Of a stretch of 53,751 nucleotides of DNA, positions 4,802 through 30,624 are shown in pieces. The notes under the pieces are model-generated. The model ran no database searches. It saw nothing but the letters and a program-made list of their open reading frames with translations, and was not told the DNA's origin. The first letter of the stretch is position 1; each line of letters opens with the position of its first letter. This DNA comes from a virus (lineage: Duplodnaviria > Heunggongvirae > Uroviricota > Caudoviricetes). The stretch is taken from the IMG/VR virus record IMGVR_UViG_2698536392_000015, positions 1 to 53,751 of that record; one strand, written 5' to 3'. The position numbers and the translations under genes were made by a program.

Positions 4802-5173
4802 TCAGGCGCGGCGGCATTTTTGCGCCGCAATCCATCTCGCTATGAGATCTTCCATTGATTCTTTTTTCTGCTTTAACTCGCTGATTATCTGGCGTTGCTC
4901 ATCCTCAGGGAAGGCTGAAAAAATCTGCAATAATTCCAGTTGATTAGACGTTAACCCTGCATGTGGTGGAGAACCCCCCGGTTGTTCTGCGTATTCCGCA
5001 TCCAGATACCCTTCCGGCATCCCGTATGTTTGCTCTATTCTTCTGGCAGCCTTTTCTCCAAACGAGGCTCTCCCACTCATTAGTTGAGATAGGTAGCTCT
5101 TCTCTTTGGGTGGCAGAGTTTTATCTTTAAACCACTCCTTGAGACGTAAACGGCGAATTTCTTTTTTTTGCAT
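4802..5173 (-). CDS. Prophage immunity repressor, DicA-like HTH protein
   Basis: HTH region (SYLSQLMSGRASFGEKAARRIE) and C-terminal LELLQIFSAFPEDEQ resembling DicA as recalled; divergent from a Cro-like gene. Confidence 0.65.
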   Translation of the reverse strand: MQKKEIRRLRLKEWFKDKTLPPKEKSYLSQLMSGRASFGEKAARRIEQTYGMPEGYLDAEYAEQPGGSPPHAGLTSNQLELLQIFSAFPEDEQRQIISELKQKKESMEDLIARWIAAQKCRRA

Positions 5174-7694: not shown

Positions 7695-7998
7695 AATCAA
7701 AGAAATACCAGTAGTACGTGATGAATATGGCTGCTGGACGCATCCTGAATATGAAAAATTCTGTGACGGTCGGGAATATATTTCAACGGAAGAGTTTAAC
7801 GCCTGGATGGAGGAAAATAATCTTCAATACGTCCTCTGCTTCAGAGATGAAGGATGTGCTGACCTTGATGCGTGTGATGCTGATATTTCTGCATGGGAAC
7901 CGGAACGACCAGAGGGCAATGGATGGTTTATTGGTTCAATACATGACACCGAAGATGGCCCGGTTTGTGTATGGCTGAGAAATAAGGCCGAAGCATAA
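7687..7998 (+). CDS. Hypothetical nin-region protein (103 aa)
   Basis: Track ORF overlapping the previous stop. Confidence 0.4.
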   Translation: MNEIKEIPVVRDEYGCWTHPEYEKFCDGREYISTEEFNAWMEENNLQYVLCFRDEGCADLDACDADISAWEPERPEGNGWFIGSIHDTEDGPVCVWLRNKAEA

Positions 7999-8130
7999 AG
8001 GCTATAAACCGACTAACAACTAAATACTGAAGATTTAAATCAGAAACGATTTTTATTAAATCCTTAACCGGAGGGATTCCTGCACCCTCAAATCATCAGG
8101 AGGCCGCCCGAAAGGGCGGTGGAGATAATA

Positions 8131-8652
8131 ATGGGAATAACTAAAGAACGATTGTTGGAAATAGCAAACCTTAGTGATTGGGCATTAAGTGATGAGAGAA
8201 TTGTTTCTCCTCATGCTTATGAGTCAGTTACAAGTATAGAAATAACAACAATGGCTAGAATGCTGCTTGGTTATTTCAAAATAGAAAATAAAAAACAGAT
8301 GGATAGTAATGTTGATATATGTGAGATTTTAGACGATTGGGGGGCTTGGGTTGTGGCTGGTAATAGTTCTATTGATTGGCAGGAAATAGCTGATAAATAT
8401 AAAAATGTTGTTCCTCATGGTAAAAAATCACGTCGTCAGTGCAGCAATGATGAAGGGCGAATTATTGACATTAGTATCCTTAGGTTAGAAAGATATAAGC
8501 AACAAGAATATGAGTTAATTGTTGCTCATTTCGTGATTGGTTTATCTCTTCGTGCTATTGCAAAGCAACAAGGATGTTCAGATGGAACAATTCGTAAAAG
8601 ATTGCAAAAAGCCTTAGGTTTTTTGACTGGATATATAGCAATTACCAGTTAA
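8131..8652 (+). CDS. Late antiterminator Q-like protein
   Basis: WGAW motif, conserved RRQC stretch and C-terminal HTH-like ...SDGTIRKRLQKALG pattern resembling phage-82-type Q as recalled; ATG 8131 with GGTGGAG RBS. Confidence 0.6.
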   Translation: MGITKERLLEIANLSDWALSDERIVSPHAYESVTSIEITTMARMLLGYFKIENKKQMDSNVDICEILDDWGAWVVAGNSSIDWQEIADKYKNVVPHGKKSRRQCSNDEGRIIDISILRLERYKQQEYELIVAHFVIGLSLRAIAKQQGCSDGTIRKRLQKALGFLTGYIAITS

Positions 8653-9290
8653 GAGTCAGCGGTTTTTTTACCAGTGTAATGGTATAAGGATACTCCCATG
8701 TGTCTTACATGATATGGAAGCGCTGTTGCTGGATGCTTTGTGATACTCTTAAAGCGGAGGGGAGAGCCTTCCGCTTCAATTTCTGCGTCCGAAACGGTCG
8801 TAGAGAAAAATTCTTTCCATTCATTGAATTTTACTGCTGATTTGTCAGACTTTATATAAATTAGAATTCCTCCATGATCGTCACGTGACGTACCCGTGCC
8901 GTAACGTTCGGTTAGCTGAATCCAGCCATTATGAATAGATTTGGGGCCTCTCCATAATTTTGCTTCACCGATCCATTCGAATTTTCCGAATTGATGTTTA
9001 ACTAATAAATCAACGTGACCGCCATGTTGAGTATCATGTTCAACATCATAAAACCTACCTTTCAGGAAATTTTTGATCGACGCTGTTAGCTCGTCCTCTC
9101 CCCACTTAGCATCTTGATAGAAGTGTTTGTCATTTTCTAAATTCTGAATAGCGTCGTCTAAATCTTCATAGAGTTGCTTTACAAAAATATTTTTGTCTGC
9201 AGCTAATTTTCTTTGAACCATTCCCCTAAATTCAGGATCCATTCTAATTAATGATTGAAGGTCTGCAGTACAGATGTTTACATCACTCAT
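8649..9290 (-). CDS. Hypothetical protein with PD-(D/E)xK nuclease-like motif, gene 3 of a three-gene operon
   Basis: GHVDLL...GEAK spacing compatible with a PD-(D/E)xK core; start MSDVNIC at 9290 with GGAGAG RBS; overlaps the upstream gene stop. Confidence 0.5.
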   Translation of the reverse strand: MSDVNICTADLQSLIRMDPEFRGMVQRKLAADKNIFVKQLYEDLDDAIQNLENDKHFYQDAKWGEDELTASIKNFLKGRFYDVEHDTQHGGHVDLLVKHQFGKFEWIGEAKLWRGPKSIHNGWIQLTERYGTGTSRDDHGGILIYIKSDKSAVKFNEWKEFFSTTVSDAEIEAEGSPLRFKSITKHPATALPYHVRHMGVSLYHYTGKKTADS

Positions 9291-20696: not shown

Positions 20697-21248
20697 ATGA
20701 TGATTTTACAACCCATGGGGCGAAAAGGTCGTGCACCCGCTCATGTCCGTCCGTGGACACCTGAAGAAGATGCGCTGCTGATTGCGCTTTATCCATCCAC
20801 CCCGGTTAAGGATATTGCTGTCAGGGTAAAAAGAAGTTTCTGGGGTGTACATAACCGGATTGTTTTATTACGCGGTACTTACCCGGAGTTGCTCAAATGC
20901 AAACGCCTCAGATTTAAACCTGATGAAGATAAATTTATCCGAAAAAATGCCAGGACGATGACCGGTAAGCAAATAGGAGAATATCTGGGGCGAGACCGGG
21001 ACTCTGTCCACAATCGGGCGCGATATATTGGCGTAAGCATGAAAAAATACGGAGAGTTGCTGCCCTTCACCCGCATACCTGACGATGATGTTCGTCTTAT
21101 TCGTGAATTACGGGATGCTGAATCACCACGGCGTCTTACCTTTAGGGAAATCGGCGAGAAATTTGAATTATCCGAGGGCACGGTGAGTTTTATTTATCAC
21201 CGTCGTCGGACTGCCGAAGATGTTGTATTACGGGAGTTAATGTCATGA
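20697..21248 (+). CDS. Hypothetical protein with HTH-like repeats (183 aa)
   Basis: Two HTH-like segments (WTPEEDALLIALY; GKQIGEYLGRDRDSVHNRARYIG). Confidence 0.45.
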   Translation: MMILQPMGRKGRAPAHVRPWTPEEDALLIALYPSTPVKDIAVRVKRSFWGVHNRIVLLRGTYPELLKCKRLRFKPDEDKFIRKNARTMTGKQIGEYLGRDRDSVHNRARYIGVSMKKYGELLPFTRIPDDDVRLIRELRDAESPRRLTFREIGEKFELSEGTVSFIYHRRRTAEDVVLRELMS

Positions 21249-21577
21249 TAACGACATTATTTGTTGAATCAGATGAACCCCTTGTGTGTGCCGCCGGAAT
21301 GCCGGTCTGTGGCGGAACGCTGACCGGTGTTTATTTCGGGGATTTGCGCGGTTATCCCTGGCATTCACTGAATGATGCTTTCCCGCCTGATATGGAGGCT
21401 GTCGTGCTGATTGTTCAGTATGGTCACAGGCAGGAACTGCGCATCGGCCATATGGGGTATGAAGGCTTTTTTATTGATGAAGAAACTGGATCCTGCCTTG
21501 AAGATGAGGACGGACAGGTGACGCACTGGTGCCATATTTCAGCTTTACCGGAATTACAGGAGACGCCCAATGGATGA
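21245..21577 (+). CDS. Hypothetical protein (110 aa)
   Basis: Track ORF. Confidence 0.4.
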   Translation: MITTLFVESDEPLVCAAGMPVCGGTLTGVYFGDLRGYPWHSLNDAFPPDMEAVVLIVQYGHRQELRIGHMGYEGFFIDEETGSCLEDEDGQVTHWCHISALPELQETPNG

Positions 21578-21710
21578 TCAAATAGTTGAATGTCCCACCT
21601 GTGGAAATGAAGCCCCGGAGTATCTGAAAGAGTGCCCACATTGTGGTGAGGTAAAATGTAATCACTGCGATATGGGCGACGACACTGCATGTATGAATTG
21701 TGAGGATTAA
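21570..21710 (+). CDS. Small zinc-ribbon protein (46 aa), below the ORF-track cutoff
   Basis: Manual translation MDDQIVECPTCGNEAPEYLKECPHCGEVKCNHCDMGDDTACMNCED with four CxxC motifs. Confidence 0.35.
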   Translation: MDDQIVECPTCGNEAPEYLKECPHCGEVKCNHCDMGDDTACMNCED

Positions 21711-22002
21711 TAATATGGAAAAAGAAATCAAATTTGCGCCTAAAGATATCGACGAAGAACTGGCTAAAATCGGCATGCTTGAGCGTATGCGGGACATTAT
21801 CGAATATGCGATAAAAGAAAATCTTGCAGCCAGAGAAGCCCTTTTGATAATGGAGCGGGAGATTAACCTGATTAAGGATGCTGTATCTCTGGATAATAAA
21901 ATAGCCCGCGAGGAATACGTTCGCCGCAGGCTCGGTGTTGATGGTTCAGCAATTCTTACATCTGAACATTATGCAAAAATCTTTAATCTTTTTTCGCGGT
22001 AA
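21700..22002 (+). CDS. Hypothetical protein (about 95-100 aa)
   Basis: Track ORF; likely start MEKEIKF at 21715. Confidence 0.35.
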   Translation: MRINNMEKEIKFAPKDIDEELAKIGMLERMRDIIEYAIKENLAAREALLIMEREINLIKDAVSLDNKIAREEYVRRRLGVDGSAILTSEHYAKIFNLFSR

Positions 22003-22222
22003 TGCCCATGCAGGCCCGGAGATTGTCGAAATGCCAGTTTGTATTAATATATGAGCCATCCTGGTGTCCCTCTGCGCTTTGGGGTGCGGCACTTTTTTGA
22101 GCAATATTGATAATATGTGTTGCCTCCTCACGGGAAATAACCCCCTTATCGAACAGGGTTACCATAAGATTTCCAGCCATTGTGAATGCGGCAACATCAA
22201 GGGCATTTTTTATATCTGACAT
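21983..22222 (-). CDS. Hypothetical protein (79 aa) on the opposite strand within the Mu-like early region
   Basis: ATG preceded by AAGGAAAAA; convergent with the upstream plus-strand gene. Confidence 0.4.
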   Translation of the reverse strand: MSDIKNALDVAAFTMAGNLMVTLFDKGVISREEATHIINIAQKSAAPQSAEGHQDGSYINTNWHFDNLRACMGITAKKD

Positions 22223-22242
22223 AGATTTTTCCTTTTATGTTA

Positions 22243-22272
22243 ATTGACATGGCGGTGCGGTAACACCGCCCA
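22243..22272 (+). terminator. Hairpin plus T-run upstream of the GemA-like gene
   Basis: GGCGGTGCGGTAACACCGCC followed by CATTTTTTAT. Confidence 0.4.
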
Positions 22273-22292
22273 TTTTTTATGGAGCCACGATA

Positions 22293-22805
22293 ATGAATCG
22301 CGCTTCCCTGATTACCTTAATACATGTCGCAAAACGCGATCTACAGCTTGACCGGGAGACCTATATATCCGCGCTGCTGGCAGCCACCGGCAAAACCAGC
22401 TGCCGGGATATGTCACCGGATGAGTTATCCCGCGTGCTGGATGTTTTCAAAAAACGCGGTTTTAAAGTGCGCCAGAAGCCGGTTAACCGGGCCTTAAAAC
22501 CGGGTACGGTGACCGCCAAAATTCGTGCCATCTGGAAGGTAATGCACCGGCAGGGCTTTATCTCTGATGGTGCGGAAACCGCCCTTAACCGCTGGGTGAA
22601 ATCGCAGACGGCCGCGCAGAACGGCGGCGAAGGTGTGGCAAACTGGCAGTGGCTGGAGCAACACCCCGCCCTGGCCTCAGATGTGCTGGAGCGTCTCAAG
22701 CGATGGCACCGCCGCAAAATGCTGGCCGCGATGGGAATGCCCGAACGCACGCTGATGGGGTATGACGCCGTTTGCAGGCAGTATGAAAAATCACTTCCCC
22801 GTTAA
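22293..22805 (+). CDS. GemA-like regulatory protein
   Basis: N-terminal pattern (LITLIHVAKRDLQLDRETYISALL...TGKTSCRDMSPDEL) resembling Mu gp16/GemA as recalled. Confidence 0.6.
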   Translation: MNRASLITLIHVAKRDLQLDRETYISALLAATGKTSCRDMSPDELSRVLDVFKKRGFKVRQKPVNRALKPGTVTAKIRAIWKVMHRQGFISDGAETALNRWVKSQTAAQNGGEGVANWQWLEQHPALASDVLERLKRWHRRKMLAAMGMPERTLMGYDAVCRQYEKSLPR

Positions 22806-22874
22806 CCCCAAATCCCGCCACAACGCGGGATTTTTATTTTAAACTTACCGGGAACGCGAGAACCGGAGGCTGAT

Positions 22875-23300
22875 ATGGCAGAAACTCAGATGAGCATGTT
22901 TGGTGGTGACAGTGAGCAACAGCACGCCCTTATCGACCGCCTTGATGACATCCCTGATGATGTTCTCAAAAAGAACTGGCCGCGGACCCTGTCTGAACTG
23001 GTTGAAGTCACCGGCGCAGAACTTCAGCGTCAGGGGATTGAGCCGGTACTGGCCGGTAAACTGGCACGCAAGGTGGCTGCGGCTCAGGCAGCCTATATGG
23101 GCGGACGGGGTTATTACCTGCCGGTCGGGGAATCTCTCTTTGCCGAGCTGCGAAACAATGAGATATTTTCGCGCTGGGACCGGGGCGAGAAAATTGAATC
23201 CCTTCGCCGCCATTACCGGATGTCAGAAACCCAGATTTATACCGTCATACGCGAACAGCGCCGTCTGCATCTGGCAAGAACGCAACCGCCACTTTTCTGA
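22875..23300 (+). CDS. Mor/C-family transcriptional activator
   Basis: C-terminal HTH ...LRRHYRMSETQIYTVIREQRR and YYLPVGESLF pattern typical of the Mor/C family; GGAGG RBS. Confidence 0.7.
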   Translation: MAETQMSMFGGDSEQQHALIDRLDDIPDDVLKKNWPRTLSELVEVTGAELQRQGIEPVLAGKLARKVAAAQAAYMGGRGYYLPVGESLFAELRNNEIFSRWDRGEKIESLRRHYRMSETQIYTVIREQRRLHLARTQPPLF

Positions 23301-23371
23301 TATTCCGCAAAGCCTGCCGCCTTTCCTTCACCGTTACGCTGACTCAGAGAACATCATGAGACAGCGTAACA

Positions 23372-23872
23372 ATGCCAAAACTCCCCGCACCACTGCGTAA
23401 AAAGCTGATTGCCCTTGTTCTGGCCGGTGCCGGGACGTTCACGATTGCCACGCATTACACCGGTTACTGGGAAGGGAAAGAAAACTCCACGTATATCGAT
23501 CCCACCGGTACACCCACCATCTGTTACGGCCATACCGGCCCGGATGTGAAACCGGGTATGACCCTGACGGATGAAGAATGCCTGGAACTGCTGGAAAAGG
23601 ACATGAAATGGGCCTTTGCGGCCATTGATCGGCGTGTTCAGGTGCCGCTTACCCGTGGTCAGACGGTGGCGCTGGCTTCGTGGATCTTCTGGGCCGGTGA
23701 AACGAACTTTCGCAACTCCACGCTTCTGCGCCTGATCAATGCCGGGCAGATGCCCGCGTCCTGTAAGCAGTATATCCGCTGGATTTATTCAAAGGGGGTG
23801 AAACTCCCCGGCCTTGAGGCCCGCCGTTCGGCGGATGAATGGTTATGTCGATACGACTTGCCGAAAGTCTGA
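23372..23872 (+). CDS. Endolysin (lysozyme-like) with N-terminal signal-anchor
   Basis: Hydrophobic N-terminus, then WEG...IDP...GTPT...CYGHTG spacing like a T4-lysozyme-type catalytic triad. Confidence 0.65.
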   Translation: MPKLPAPLRKKLIALVLAGAGTFTIATHYTGYWEGKENSTYIDPTGTPTICYGHTGPDVKPGMTLTDEECLELLEKDMKWAFAAIDRRVQVPLTRGQTVALASWIFWAGETNFRNSTLLRLINAGQMPASCKQYIRWIYSKGVKLPGLEARRSADEWLCRYDLPKV

Positions 23873-29188: not shown

Positions 29189-30503
29189 TTTAGGTTATGC
29201 CGCCACCCTTCCCTCAAAAGAGGCGGTGGCATACTTCCGCGCCAAAGGGGCGCGTATCAGCTGGAACTGGTTCGAAACAAACGCAGATGTTCATGCCCGA
29301 TCGTTCACGGCGGCAAAAGCGGCACGCCTGGACGTACTGACCACACTACAGGCGGAAGTGCAACGGGCCATTGATGAGGGGATTTCACAGAAAGCATTTA
29401 TCCGCACACTGACACCCCGCCTGCAAAAGCTGGGATGGTGGGGGAAGCAGATTGTGGTGGACAGAGCCGGTAACGCAGAAGAAGTACAGCTGGGCAGTCC
29501 CCGCCGTCTGGCGCTGATTTACAACGTGAACACCCGCGTGGCTTACAATGCCGGGCGTTACACGCAGATGATGAACAACACGGACACGCATCCGTTCTGG
29601 CAGTATGTGGCGGTCATGGACAGCCGTACCCGCCCGTCGCATTCCGCCCTTAACGGTCTGGTATTCCGCTATGATGATCCGTTCTGGAAAACACACTACC
29701 CACCCAATGGCTGGAACTGCCGCTGCCGTGTGCGGCCATTGTCTCAGGCCCGTCTGGATGCAATGGGGTTATCCGTTTCATCCGGTGAGGATCATCTCTC
29801 CACCCGCAATGTTGAGGCTGGCGTGGATAAACAGACCGGAGAAGTCAGAGAAATGCCGGTGACCACATATTCAGATGGCACCAGAACCATGACACCGGAT
29901 GTGGGCTGGTCATATAACCCCGGTTCGGCGGCGTTCGGCACAGACCAGGCGCTGATCCGTAAACTGATCGAGGTGAAAAGCCCGGCGTTACGGGAAATGG
30001 TGGTTCAGGAGATGAACAACAGCCCGGAGCGGCAGCTGGCGTTCCGCATCTGGGCAAAAAACATCATGAAAACCCGGCGAGGCGGTAACGATATCCGCAC
30101 GCTGGGCTTTATGACCGAAAGTATTGCGCAGGCGGTGGAAAGCCGGACAGGAACGCCACCGGCCCGCCTGCTGGCGATGAGCGGTAAAAATGTGCTCCAT
30201 GCGGACAGCATGAAACATCAGAATGACGGTATCGCCCTGACGCCGGAGGATTTCGGGCGATTACCGGCAATGCTGGCAACGCCAAAAGCGGTACTGTGGG
30301 ATAAACGCCACAACAATCTGATGTATATCGTGGAAAGTAAGGATGGCAGTGTGCAGATTGCCGTTAATGCGCCGTACAGCCTGAAGCGTCAGCCGGATAA
30401 ACTGGATGTGATTGTGAATGCTTACCGGGTTATCAATATGGATAAGCTGAAATCGGATATCCGGGGCGGAATGCTTGAGGTACTGGAAGGCGATATTGAT
30501 TAA
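29172..30503 (+). CDS. Head morphogenesis protein (Mu F-like)
   Basis: 443 aa after portal; conserved order. Confidence 0.75.
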   Translation: MAQGIDLGYAATLPSKEAVAYFRAKGARISWNWFETNADVHARSFTAAKAARLDVLTTLQAEVQRAIDEGISQKAFIRTLTPRLQKLGWWGKQIVVDRAGNAEEVQLGSPRRLALIYNVNTRVAYNAGRYTQMMNNTDTHPFWQYVAVMDSRTRPSHSALNGLVFRYDDPFWKTHYPPNGWNCRCRVRPLSQARLDAMGLSVSSGEDHLSTRNVEAGVDKQTGEVREMPVTTYSDGTRTMTPDVGWSYNPGSAAFGTDQALIRKLIEVKSPALREMVVQEMNNSPERQLAFRIWAKNIMKTRRGGNDIRTLGFMTESIAQAVESRTGTPPARLLAMSGKNVLHADSMKHQNDGIALTPEDFGRLPAMLATPKAVLWDKRHNNLMYIVESKDGSVQIAVNAPYSLKRQPDKLDVIVNAYRVINMDKLKSDIRGGMLEVLEGDID

Positions 30504-30624
30504 CGGTCAGTGGCGGGGGTCGAACCCGCATACATGATCCACCCGGAGGCAGGCACCGACTTTACCAGTTAAGCGTACACTGACCGCCTGTTTATTTTAT
30601 ATTCATCCTTTATGCGGAGGCAAT

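Follow-up and report, generated by a model that had tools for sequence, protein, structure and literature searches.

A leftward gene of the Mu gp15 family and its flanking hairpins in the early region of a Mu-like prophage

Gene content of the locus

The stretch of DNA analysed here, referred to as the window, has a length of 53,751 nucleotides. It is a Mu-like prophage sequence that is 100% identical to E. coli SCU-106. The following features were assigned to the region in which a leftward gene lies among rightward early genes (all coordinates are those of the window).

21570-21710, plus strand: zinc-ribbon ORF of 46 aa resembling Mu gp13 (E14); phrog_5584, E = 3e-27, and zinc-ribbon hints in Pfam
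21715-22002, plus strand: homologue of Mu gp14 (E15), 95 aa; BLASTP identity 50%, E = 3e-30; phrog_6075
21892-21932, minus strand: hairpin of the leftward gene resembling an intrinsic terminator; stems 21932-21925/21910-21903, T-rich tail 21902-21892
21983-22222, minus strand: leftward gene of 79 aa, Mu gp15 superfamily (phrog_32893); ATG start, PGAP CDS
22216-22244, plus strand: weak candidate promoter; -35 CTGACA (22216-22221), 17 nt, -10 GTTAAT (22239-22244); PWM score 8.7
22234-22230, minus strand: Shine-Dalgarno (SD) sequence AAGGA, 7 nt upstream of the start codon of the leftward gene
22251-22279, plus strand: GC-rich, terminator-like hairpin GGCGGTG-CGGTAA-CACCGCC + CATTTTTTA, directly upstream of the gemA SD
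22293-22805, plus strand: gemA (gp16 family); PF06252, E = 4e-28; PGAP
22810-22843, plus strand: terminator-like hairpin between gemA and mor, AAATCCCGC-CACAAC-GCGGGATTT + TTATTTT
22875-23300, plus strand: transcription activator of the mor family; PF08765, E = 3e-32; PGAP

The gp13-like ORF, for which the RefSeq record lists no CDS, shares the motif CPTCGNE.PEYLKECPHCG with Mu gp13. The GC skew changes sign across the 79-aa gene.

Coding capacity of the leftward frame

By length alone, an ORF of 79 aa is nothing above chance. Neither the ORF nor the rightward hairpin can be distinguished from chance when taken singly, and both are taken as real because they are conserved. PGAP annotates the same ORF in E. 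coli SCU-106 as a hypothetical protein (WP_032204020.1), and its product matches phrog_32893 over the full length with E = 2.4e-40. The preliminary description had proposed a minus-strand ORF with its own ribosome-binding site, converging on the upstream plus-strand gene, and both proposals held. The SD lies 6-9 nt from the start codon in 11 of 11 lineages of the gene family that were inspected, and the ORF shares 20 nt with the 3' end of the gp14 homologue. The frame is conserved and has the lowest omega, 0.17-0.26 compared to 0.4-1.5 in the five other frames. Between Mu and the locus L040, the gp15-family gene yields an omega of 0.41 and no stops, while the other frames contain 5-9 stops. 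The substitution patterns thus identify the 79-aa ORF as a real protein-coding gene under purifying selection (omega about 0.2).

One could also assume that no protein is made from this ORF, and that the interval has its product on the plus strand or yields antisense RNA only. In the GenBank record of Mu (AF083977), a 55-aa plus-strand ORF named Mu_54 is indeed annotated opposite gp15, short plus-strand ORFs lie opposite the 79-aa gene in the window too, and several database alleles of the gene contain frameshifts. However, conservation at the protein level is confined to the leftward frame, in which motifs are retained at identities as low as 18-27%, and the omega values and the lack of stops between Mu and L040 single out the same frame. 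The SD of the family is kept in all lineages, and the plus-strand ORFs of the window and of Mu have no similarity that is evident by eye. We consider this explanation scarcely credible.

The leftward gene as a relative of Mu gp15

The RefSeq record of Mu contains a leftward gene, gp15 (Mup15, NP_050619.1; phrog_8747), at complement 7896-8162, with its function listed as uncharacterised. Alignment with hhalign matched the profile of the 79-aa family to Mu gp15 with a probability of 93% (E = 2.8e-7), covering the N-terminal 53 residues, and to a leftward 119-aa ORF of phage D108 with a probability of 95%. Weak, reciprocal cross-matches between the PHROG families tie phrog_32893, phrog_8747 and phrog_38610 together (D108 link 5e-7), and the sequences P0029 and P0030 bridge the gp15 subfamilies. 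Homologues from about a dozen lineages were examined, down to 18-27% identity, and all of them occupy the same slot in the same orientation. The layout of these loci is constant: a leftward gene, a spacer of 64-150 nt to the next rightward gene, and a 3' overlap with a gp14 homologue, which is found as the partner gene at every gp15-family locus. Slot, orientation and gp14 overlap were checked in the window, in Mu and at thirteen other loci. According to these comparisons, the 79-aa ORF is remotely homologous to Mu gp15 and occupies exactly the equivalent position, and the three PHROG families form, by the same evidence, a single family of leftward genes tied to gp14. The seemingly odd opposite-strand gene is the local version of a gene that has been in the Mu reference genome, uncharacterised, from its sequencing onwards, and not a new kind of element.

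The Mu locus shares with the window the leftward gene in the slot before gemA, its 3' overlap with gp14 and the SD-ATG arrangement, as well as a GGCGGTG...CACCGCC hairpin before gemA and a leftward hairpin inside gp14. The proteins, however, have an overall identity of only about 18% and belong to separate PHROG families. Where the window family has the C-terminal helix motif WH(L/F)DNL, Mu gp15 has KIMEDII and also a 15-residue acidic tail, and the T-tract of the Mu hairpin is degenerate. The ORF of D108 (phrog_38610; GQ357916, complement ~7853-8212, unannotated) is likewise similar in slot, orientation, SD and hairpin, and its core FGITGFMLVGNLMIKLIENGVINMHDAYDII matches the core LDVAAFTMAGNLMVTLFDKGVISREEATHII of the window protein. 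Its C-terminal part is different, and its N-terminus is extended by an acidic stretch of 33 residues. The reference records thus look incomplete, as GenBank lists the plus-strand Mu_54 in place of gp15 for Mu and no gene at all in this place for D108.

The type of 79-aa gene found in the window is present in 14 of 5426 complete E. coli genomes, while the adjoining gemA-mor pair is found in 231. In the common O157-type prophages, four rightward ORFs are found instead of the 79-aa gene, and the swap comprises the whole gp13-gp14-gp15 block together with the 5' end of gemA. At the locus L042, the slot is occupied by an unrelated leftward gene (DUF2513). The block is swappable among E. coli Mu-like prophages. 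Scans of viral and metagenome contigs provided few extra loci, so that the taxonomic breadth given here comes from exact-protein look-ups; searches of genome contigs with the gp15 and gp14 profiles gave no matches.

The gene had initially been read as an independently regulated insert that breaks a unidirectional early operon. A recent acquisition of this kind would resemble a moron: the gene forms a compact unit, carries an SD and a predicted terminator of its own, and is oriented independently of the operon around it. The block is also variable among related prophages, as the genome counts above illustrate, and the slot can carry unrelated cargo such as the DUF2513 gene. This interpretation is not compatible with the distribution of the family. 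Far from being absent or poorly conserved in related elements, the ORF is conserved in the homology and synteny comparisons: an equivalent leftward gene is present in Mu (between gp14 and gemA), SfMu, D108 and Yersinia Mu-like phages as well as in Klebsiella and Salmonella prophages, and the neighbours in the window are homologues of Mu gp13, gp14, GemA and Mor. The position is orthologous in Mu, D108, SfMu and prophages of three genera. Identity to the same-slot homologues has decayed to 18-55%, which argues for long residence and not for recent insertion. The gene is interlocked with gp14 through the overlapping 3' ends and a leftward terminator within a conserved gp14 motif, and the O157-type replacement does not exchange it as a single gene. 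In contrast to a typical moron, it has no base-composition contrast with its neighbours (GC 0.40-0.47, compared to 0.39-0.48 over gp13 and gp14), and we found no promoter for it. A recent insertion is therefore improbable. Judging from synteny throughout the Muvirus lineage, the leftward gene has long belonged to the Mu-type early region and is conserved there.

Hairpins on both sides of the leftward gene

A scan of positions 21000-23500 detected 5 terminator-like sites, compared to 2.8 +/- 1.6 in shuffled sequences. A plus-strand hairpin with a T-run had been noticed before the GemA gene; the structure is present, but it extends from 22251 to 22279 and not from 22243 to 22272. It consists of a 7-bp stem (22251-22257/22264-22270) with 6 GC pairs and the 6-nt loop CGGTAA, followed by CAUUUUUUA with six T residues at 22273-22278, the gemA SD (GGAG) and the gemA ATG at 22293. 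Folded as plus-strand RNA, it has an energy of -13.2 kcal/mol (z = -2.1). The hairpin between gemA and mor folds with -13.5 kcal/mol (z = -4.9), and 0 of 200 shuffles were equally stable.

In an alignment of 10 lineages, 100% of the 70 cells of the rightward stem pair, and 3 of these are G·U cells, which are valid only on the plus strand. Two pairs vary on both sides, but this covariation is thin, since 4 of the 7 pairs are invariant and two double-changed pairs were matched by 12 of 500 shuffles. The loop length ranges from 4 to 8 nt and includes a GAAA tetraloop. The tail is T-rich in all lineages; it is strong in the window, L016 and L025 and degenerate in Mu (CCCTTTCC), L012 and L020. Either the termination efficiency differs between lineages, or termination is not the conserved function. 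An Rfam search of 21000-23500 (E <= 1) gave no match.

The hairpin is kept at the locus L024, even though the next rightward gene there is a DUF2786 gene. At L042, a hairpin with a different stem sequence is found beside the leftward DUF2513 gene, and O157-type prophages, which have rightward ORFs only and no spacer, lack the hairpin. Going by these loci, the rightward hairpin goes with the leftward gene of the slot and not with gemA.

On the other side, the leftward gene is followed by a hairpin with a 9-bp outer stem and then AUUUUAUUAU, 51 nt beyond its stop codon. This hairpin lies inside the gp14-like CDS, at N-K-I-A-R-E-E-Y-V-R-R-R-L, the most conserved gp14 motif, and because of this overlap its conservation is partly a protein-coding constraint. 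Minus-strand RNA folds with -16.8 kcal/mol (z = -2.2), compared to -13.2 kcal/mol with mismatches on the plus strand. Among 11 lineages, 98.9% of the cells pair, including 7 U·G cells that are mismatches on the plus strand. With 13-14 nt, its loop is longer than is typical of intrinsic terminators. The GenBank record of Mu contains a terminator predicted by TransTermHP at the same spot (7839-7873). From the folds and the alignment we conclude that the 79-aa gene has its own conserved leftward hairpin and T-tract about 50 nt past its stop, and it looks like a self-contained transcription unit.

Promoter candidates in the spacer

A scan for consensus sigma-70 promoters on both strands of 21000-23500 yielded no site. 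PWM scans of both strands at 12 loci produced recurrent candidates that were weak or implausible and not positionally conserved. Leftward candidates lie over the gemA start codon in some loci, and the one in the window (TTAAGG-19-CATTAT) is weak. A leftward -10 element that overlaps the ATG of the 79-aa gene was discarded, as a transcript started from it could not contain the required SD. The rightward candidate at 22216-22244 is below the threshold of the consensus scan; we infer that transcripts from it would begin at the base of the hairpin. In the feature table of the Mu GenBank record, a 'semi-early promoter' is placed at 8151-8217, over the equivalent spacer. Due to the weakness or implausibility of the PWM candidates, no promoter was assigned.

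A possible role for the rightward hairpin

We lean slightly towards a model in which the slot contains a self-contained leftward unit and a rightward attenuator or insulator that guards gemA-mor. The leftward gene would be an autonomous transcription unit whose promoter lies within the 70-bp spacer or immediately past it, and its terminator would keep transcription of the 79-aa gene from running antisense into the transposition genes. The rightward hairpin would stop or thin rightward transcripts after the leftward gene and before gemA and mor. Such transcripts could originate at Pe or arise by weak rightward initiation within the AT-rich divergent-promoter region. The early operon would thereby be partitioned from a separately tuned gemA-mor unit. 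Converging Pe transcription after induction would silence the leftward gene, which would thus probably be expressed mainly while Pe is repressed, i.e. in the lysogen. Efficient termination at both 22251-22279 and 22810-22843 would leave no mor transcription from Pe, so the model works only if termination is leaky or a separate promoter exists. If the model is true, it bears on gemA-mor as a "semi-early", partly Pe-independent unit, which is an old loose end in Mu, and on how lysogens keep Mor expression low.

With its GC-rich stem of seven pairs, its short loop, its U-rich tail and its position between transcription units, the hairpin resembles intrinsic terminators and attenuators, from which it differs by the degenerate tail in some lineages. 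It also differs from t9.2, the Mu early terminator downstream of mor. The hairpin of the window is located upstream of gemA-mor and not after mor, and it would cut the activator off from Pe unless it is leaky. A terminator is predicted at 9179-9200 in the GenBank record of Mu.

Two other functions were considered for the same structure. It could form the 5' end of the gemA-mor mRNA or serve in its processing and stability, protecting the message or keeping the gemA SD accessible, either as the 5' stem-loop that remains after RNase cleavage of a duplex between early RNA and leftward mRNA, or as the 5' end of transcripts from a spacer promoter. Only the T-rich tail ever separates the hairpin from the downstream SD of the next rightward gene, and the hairpin occurs only where gemA lacks translational coupling to an upstream gene. 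The stem is kept in spite of a poor T-tract in Mu, L012 and L020, and in several lineages a -10-like hexamer precedes the stem by 1-7 nt, so that transcripts could start at its foot. However, the promoter candidates that this explanation would use are weak, and in the window, L016, L024, L025 and L028 a good U-tract completes the terminator pattern. We regard a processing or stability element as rather unlikely, though deserving some weight. Alternatively, the GC-rich inverted repeat could be a DNA operator to which the small protein or another phage regulator binds as a dimer, controlling gemA-mor, its own promoter or both. The almost invariant half-sites GGCGGTG/CACCGCC around a variable loop, and the divergent layout with its 70-bp spacer, would be expected of an operator in a classical divergent pair of regulator and target. 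Still, the spacing of the half-sites varies (loops of 4, 6 and 8 nt, one GAAA tetraloop, one bulged stem), which is hard to square with a dimer whose footprint is fixed. All three cells that are not Watson-Crick pairs read G·T on the plus strand, which means that the palindrome is broken exactly where the RNA pair is kept. A T-rich tract follows the repeat in all lineages, and the same kind of hairpin with another stem sequence accompanies the unrelated DUF2513 gene. In addition, the 79-aa protein is acidic and lacks a helix-turn-helix signature as well as any DNA-binding Pfam or fold match. An operator is quite improbable, and we keep the attenuator or insulator as our working model.

The near-invariant sequence of the rightward stems would be compatible with a DNA site or a recombination boundary as well.

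The protein product

An AF2 model of the 79-aa protein (pLDDT 78) is a three-helix bundle with helices at residues 3-25, 31-44 and 61-71; counted from the sequence, there are 9 acidic and 7 basic residues. Sequence searches of Pfam, NCBIfam, PADLOC and PDB with the protein and its relatives gave nothing significant, and a Foldseek search of PDB with the first AF2 model found no match at E < 6, so that the fold yielded no assignment of function. With PADLOC at E <= 1 there was none for the window protein, Mu gp15, P0011, P0015, the DUF2513 slot gene and the neighbours. We thus predict a small acidic product folded as a three-helix bundle, for which these searches gave no informative relatives. 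It would most likely bind another protein and not DNA.

A transmembrane protein was rejected: helix 1, hydrophobic in the window protein, is charged in Mu gp15. A toxin-antitoxin or defence module together with gp14 was also dismissed, as no model matches. A literature search found no paper on the function of gp15; a paper on overlapping genes in Fc02 concerns another region.

A wider speculation, to which we assign a low probability, is that the gp14-gp15-hairpin block is an overlooked control point of the Mu cascade. A leftward unit that is active in the lysogen and starts beyond the hairpin would, together with the rightward attenuator, gate the transcription from Pe or the spacer that reaches mor, and would thereby set the threshold for middle and late (lytic) entry. 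The small acidic gp15-family protein would take part in this decision too, through a partner from the host or the phage. With a start beyond the hairpin, the leftward mRNA would have a 5' leader that is antisense to the ribosome-binding site and start codon of gemA.

In three distant lineages (L024, L025 and L029), the leftward leader also folds in such a way that the gene's own SD is sequestered. This would fit a regulated leader.

A Mu gp15 homologue between gp14 and gemA

The region around the minus-strand ORF contains the following features.

Features between the start of the zinc-ribbon ORF and mor (window coordinates)
21570-21710, + strand: zinc-ribbon ORF of 46 aa, Mu gp13/E14 homologue (phrog_5584, E = 3e-27)
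21715-22002, + strand: gp14-like converging gene, 50% identity to Mu gp14/E15
21932-21925 and 21910-21903, - strand: stems of a leftward terminator-like hairpin, with tail 21902-21892 (-16.8 kcal/mol, z = -2.2)
21983-22222, - strand: window gene, 79 aa, ATG start
22234-22230, - strand: Shine-Dalgarno sequence (SD) AAGGA of the window gene, 7 nt 5' of the ATG
22251-22279, + strand: rightward hairpin, GGCGGTG-CGGTAA-CACCGCC-CATTTTTTA, directly before the gemA GGAG and ATG
22293-22805, + strand: gemA (PF06252)
22810-22843, + strand: second terminator-like hairpin, between gemA and mor; 9-bp stem with a preceding A-tract and a following T-tract (z = -4.9)

The preliminary description had the coordinates and strong RBS of the 79-aa ORF right, and also its convergence on the upstream plus-strand gene, with which it shares its final 20 nt (3' end to 3' end). 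On the other side, a spacer of 70 nt separates its start from gemA. A homology search with the protein yielded a full-length match to phrog_32893 (E = 2.4e-40). The family, as recovered by a full-library HMMER search and two word-indexed searches, is small and consists of proteins of 67-92 aa with 27-55% identity, which share the motifs (F/L)D(V/I/L)AAFT(L/M)AGN(L/I)L..L..KG(V/I)(I/L)S..EA and (I/V)D.(D/N)WHLDNL.A. The gene is real and under purifying selection: among close alleles, omega (Nei-Gojobori) is 0.17-0.26 in the annotated frame versus 0.4-1.5 in the five others, and GC skew, positive across the rightward genes, is zero or negative across the window gene. An AlphaFold2 model from a 17-sequence alignment predicts a three-helix bundle (helices 3-25, 31-44 and 61-71; pLDDT 78, pTM 0.65), with a low-confidence linker at 48-52.

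Five of the 10 closest database clusters (alleles P0006-P0010) are frameshifted within codons 43-54 (window about 22060-22095), at differing positions, one of them at an A6 run (CAAAAAAG). Four of these five alleles continue in one common alternative frame and reach 88-92 aa. They could reflect cryptic-prophage decay or assembly errors.

The ORF had been proposed to be an independently regulated insert that breaks the early operon. It is indeed an opposite-strand gene and looks self-contained, but the synteny comparison shows that it is not an insert, since homologues, including Mu gp15, lie in the same slot and orientation. We compared the genomic contexts of the distant homologues that could be reached, in Klebsiella, Salmonella, and metagenomic and short-read contigs. 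All of these loci have a single layout, in which the gene runs counter to the early operon, starts 64-150 nt from the gemA start (in locus L024, from the start of a DUF2786 gene that precedes gemA) and overlaps with its 3' end that of a converging gene of 95-121 aa, which is homologous from locus to locus. In phage Mu, a leftward ORF of 88 aa is found in exactly the equivalent position. RefSeq record NC_000929 lists it as Mup15 (gp15), a hypothetical protein (complement 7896-8162). The gene is also annotated in SfMu (SfMu_16) and in Yersinia phage Tongde; the SfMu paper mentions four leftward genes without discussing them.

Alignment of the family profile with Mu gp15 gave an hhalign probability of 93% (E = 2.8e-7). 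Mu gp15 itself matches phrog_32893 at 6e-4, the homologue P0015 matches Mu's phrog_8747 at 1e-4, and the proteins P0029 and P0030 are bridge sequences linking the two types. In D108 (GQ357916), the 376 bp between gene 14 and gemA carry no annotation. This gap holds a leftward ORF of 119 aa (L043 1054-1413, minus strand; about 7853-8212 complement), for which an SD and the hairpin are likewise present; it belongs to phrog_38610 (E = 8e-83), cross-matches phrog_32893 at 5e-7 and reaches 95% probability against the family profile. By these cross-matches and profile alignments, phrog_8747, phrog_32893 and phrog_38610 are one leftward gene family, of which the window gene is the phrog_32893-type member. 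The family is thus already known through Mu gp15 but uncharacterised, and the window gene is an added member. Gene 15 and both its hairpins have apparently never been studied; otherwise the finding holds no surprise for a Mu specialist.

The current GenBank record of Mu (AF083977) has a 55-aa ORF, Mu_54 (7960-8127, +), where RefSeq has the leftward gp15 (L031 3897-4163). Of the two, the leftward frame is the one favoured by conservation, omega and stop-codon counts. Between Mu and a P0029-type locus, the gp15 frame has an omega of 0.41 and 0 stops, and all other frames contain 5-9 stops.

Hairpins on both sides of the gene

The plus-strand hairpin and T-run that the preliminary description had noted before gemA are present, but at 22251-22279 and not at 22243-22272. 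The hairpin (-13.2 kcal/mol) was picked up by the terminator scan, which found 5 terminator-like sites versus 2.8 +/- 1.6 in shuffles; neither ORF nor hairpin alone is above chance. Across 10 distinct lineages, 70 of 70 cells are paired; four pairs are invariant, two are changed on both sides, and three G·U cells are valid solely in plus-strand RNA. Covariation support is modest, being matched in 12 of 500 shuffles. The loops vary in sequence and length (CGGTAA, TTGCAG, CTGACA, CTAACG, one of 8 nt, GAAA). A T-rich tail joins the hairpin to the SD in every lineage compared; strong tails are those of the window, L016, L024, L025 and L028, weak ones those of Mu, L012 and L020. L024 retains the hairpin although its next rightward gene is not gemA. 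The variable spacing, wobble pairs and tetraloop speak for an RNA element rather than for the alternative of a protein operator at this site.

The leftward hairpin forms about 50 nt after the stop codon, where AGCCUGCG...CGCGGGCU can pair, followed by AUUUUAUUAU. Its plus-strand counterpart is mismatched and folds more weakly. It was missed by the consensus terminator scan because of its loop of 13-14 nt, and coincides with a TransTermHP terminator in the Mu GenBank record (7839-7873). It is found in 11 of 11 lineages compared, with 98.9% of cells paired, seven of which are U·G, corresponding to C·A mismatches on the plus strand; an Ala third-codon position covaries with a Glu-to-Arg change in the opposite arm. 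As the hairpin coincides with the invariant gp14 residues N61, A64, R65, R70, R71 and L73, RNA and protein constraints are superimposed.

Variability of the slot

Among 5426 complete E. coli genomes, the window gene type occurs in 14, compared with 231 that carry the same gemA-mor. Prophages of the common O157 type share with the window prophage a 110-aa ORF upstream and gemA downstream. Four unrelated ORFs, all rightward, fill their slot. The last of them overlaps gemA (ATGA), a spacer is missing, and this all-rightward cassette has no hairpin. In E. coli JKHS016 (NZ_CP147059.1; L042 1045-1455), the slot is filled by an unrelated leftward DUF2513 gene (phrog_585, 136 aa), which overlaps the rightward gene upstream at its end and is set apart from gemA by a 64-nt spacer. 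At the same place there is a hairpin whose stem differs, GGCGGC-GTTGCCAT-GCCGCC, with a T-rich tail. The block is swappable among prophages, and the rightward hairpin is conserved and travels with the leftward gene.

In E. coli 2012EL-2448 (L044 876-1573), an IS1A has inserted between gemA and the leftward gene, at about the equivalent of window 22260 and apparently inside the hairpin. At query position 278 the match to the window breaks off.

Promoters and possible function

No site was found in a consensus promoter scan, and PWM scans did not identify one with confidence either. The weak rightward PWM candidate, CTGACA (22216-22221), 17 nt, GTTAAT (22239-22244), would start transcription at the foot of the rightward hairpin. 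Leftward candidates at some loci have a -10 overlapping the reverse complement of the gemA start codon (L020: TTAATT-16-CATAAT) and are weak in the window. The Mu GenBank record, citing PMID 9454718, places a "semi-early promoter" at 8151-8217, precisely over the spacer between gp15 and gemA. In three distant lineages (L024 and L025, about 4950-5000; L029, about 1600-1650), a second hairpin in the leftward leader sequesters the SD of the gene (e.g. CCUUGUUAGA...UCUAACAAGG; z = -3.4 to -3.8 in two of the three), and leftward transcription should therefore begin at or beyond the GC hairpin. This leader hairpin is absent from the window and Mu.

The comparisons establish that the leftward gene is a conserved member of the Mu gp15 family, has an SD and is under purifying selection, and that it is accompanied by a leftward terminator-like hairpin and, at its 5' side, a rightward one. 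We propose that the gene forms an autonomous leftward unit with insulation on either side, and that the rightward hairpin attenuates or insulates transcription into gemA-mor. Such transcription could be read-through from the early promoter Pe, crossing the gene in antisense, or could start in the AT-rich divergent-promoter spacer. A promoter-bearing spacer beside the activator of the lytic cascade would be a liability in a lysogen, and shielding of gemA-mor would explain why a hairpin is present whenever a leftward gene fills the slot and absent otherwise. The hairpin at 22810-22843 would fit the same logic. It resembles a textbook intrinsic terminator, so that gemA in the window is bracketed by two rightward terminator-like hairpins, whereas gemA and mor overlap in Mu. 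After induction, convergent transcription from Pe would shut off the leftward gene, and the most economical guess is therefore that it is expressed in the lysogen. This proposal is weakest in its missing promoter, the thin covariation and the degenerate T-tract of Mu; it also needs leaky termination for Mor still to be made.

Further observations

The region matches E. coli SCU-106 (NZ_CP053234.1) at 100% identity. There, the minus-strand ORF is a PGAP CDS (WP_032204020.1, hypothetical protein), and the first gene of the Mu-like prophage is leftward and repressor-like; an HTH gene and genes for a Mu-type transposase, a MuB-like ATPase and Gam come next. The zinc-ribbon ORF is not annotated in this RefSeq record. 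PGAP places a 'tRNA-OTHER' at about 30497-30577 (-), between the minor head protein and virion morphogenesis genes of the prophage. A Salmonella enterica prophage (L016 4945-5379) carries an opposite-strand ORF of 144 aa (phrog_15648) between gemA and mor, which points to the flanks of gemA as a landing zone open to leftward accessory genes in general.
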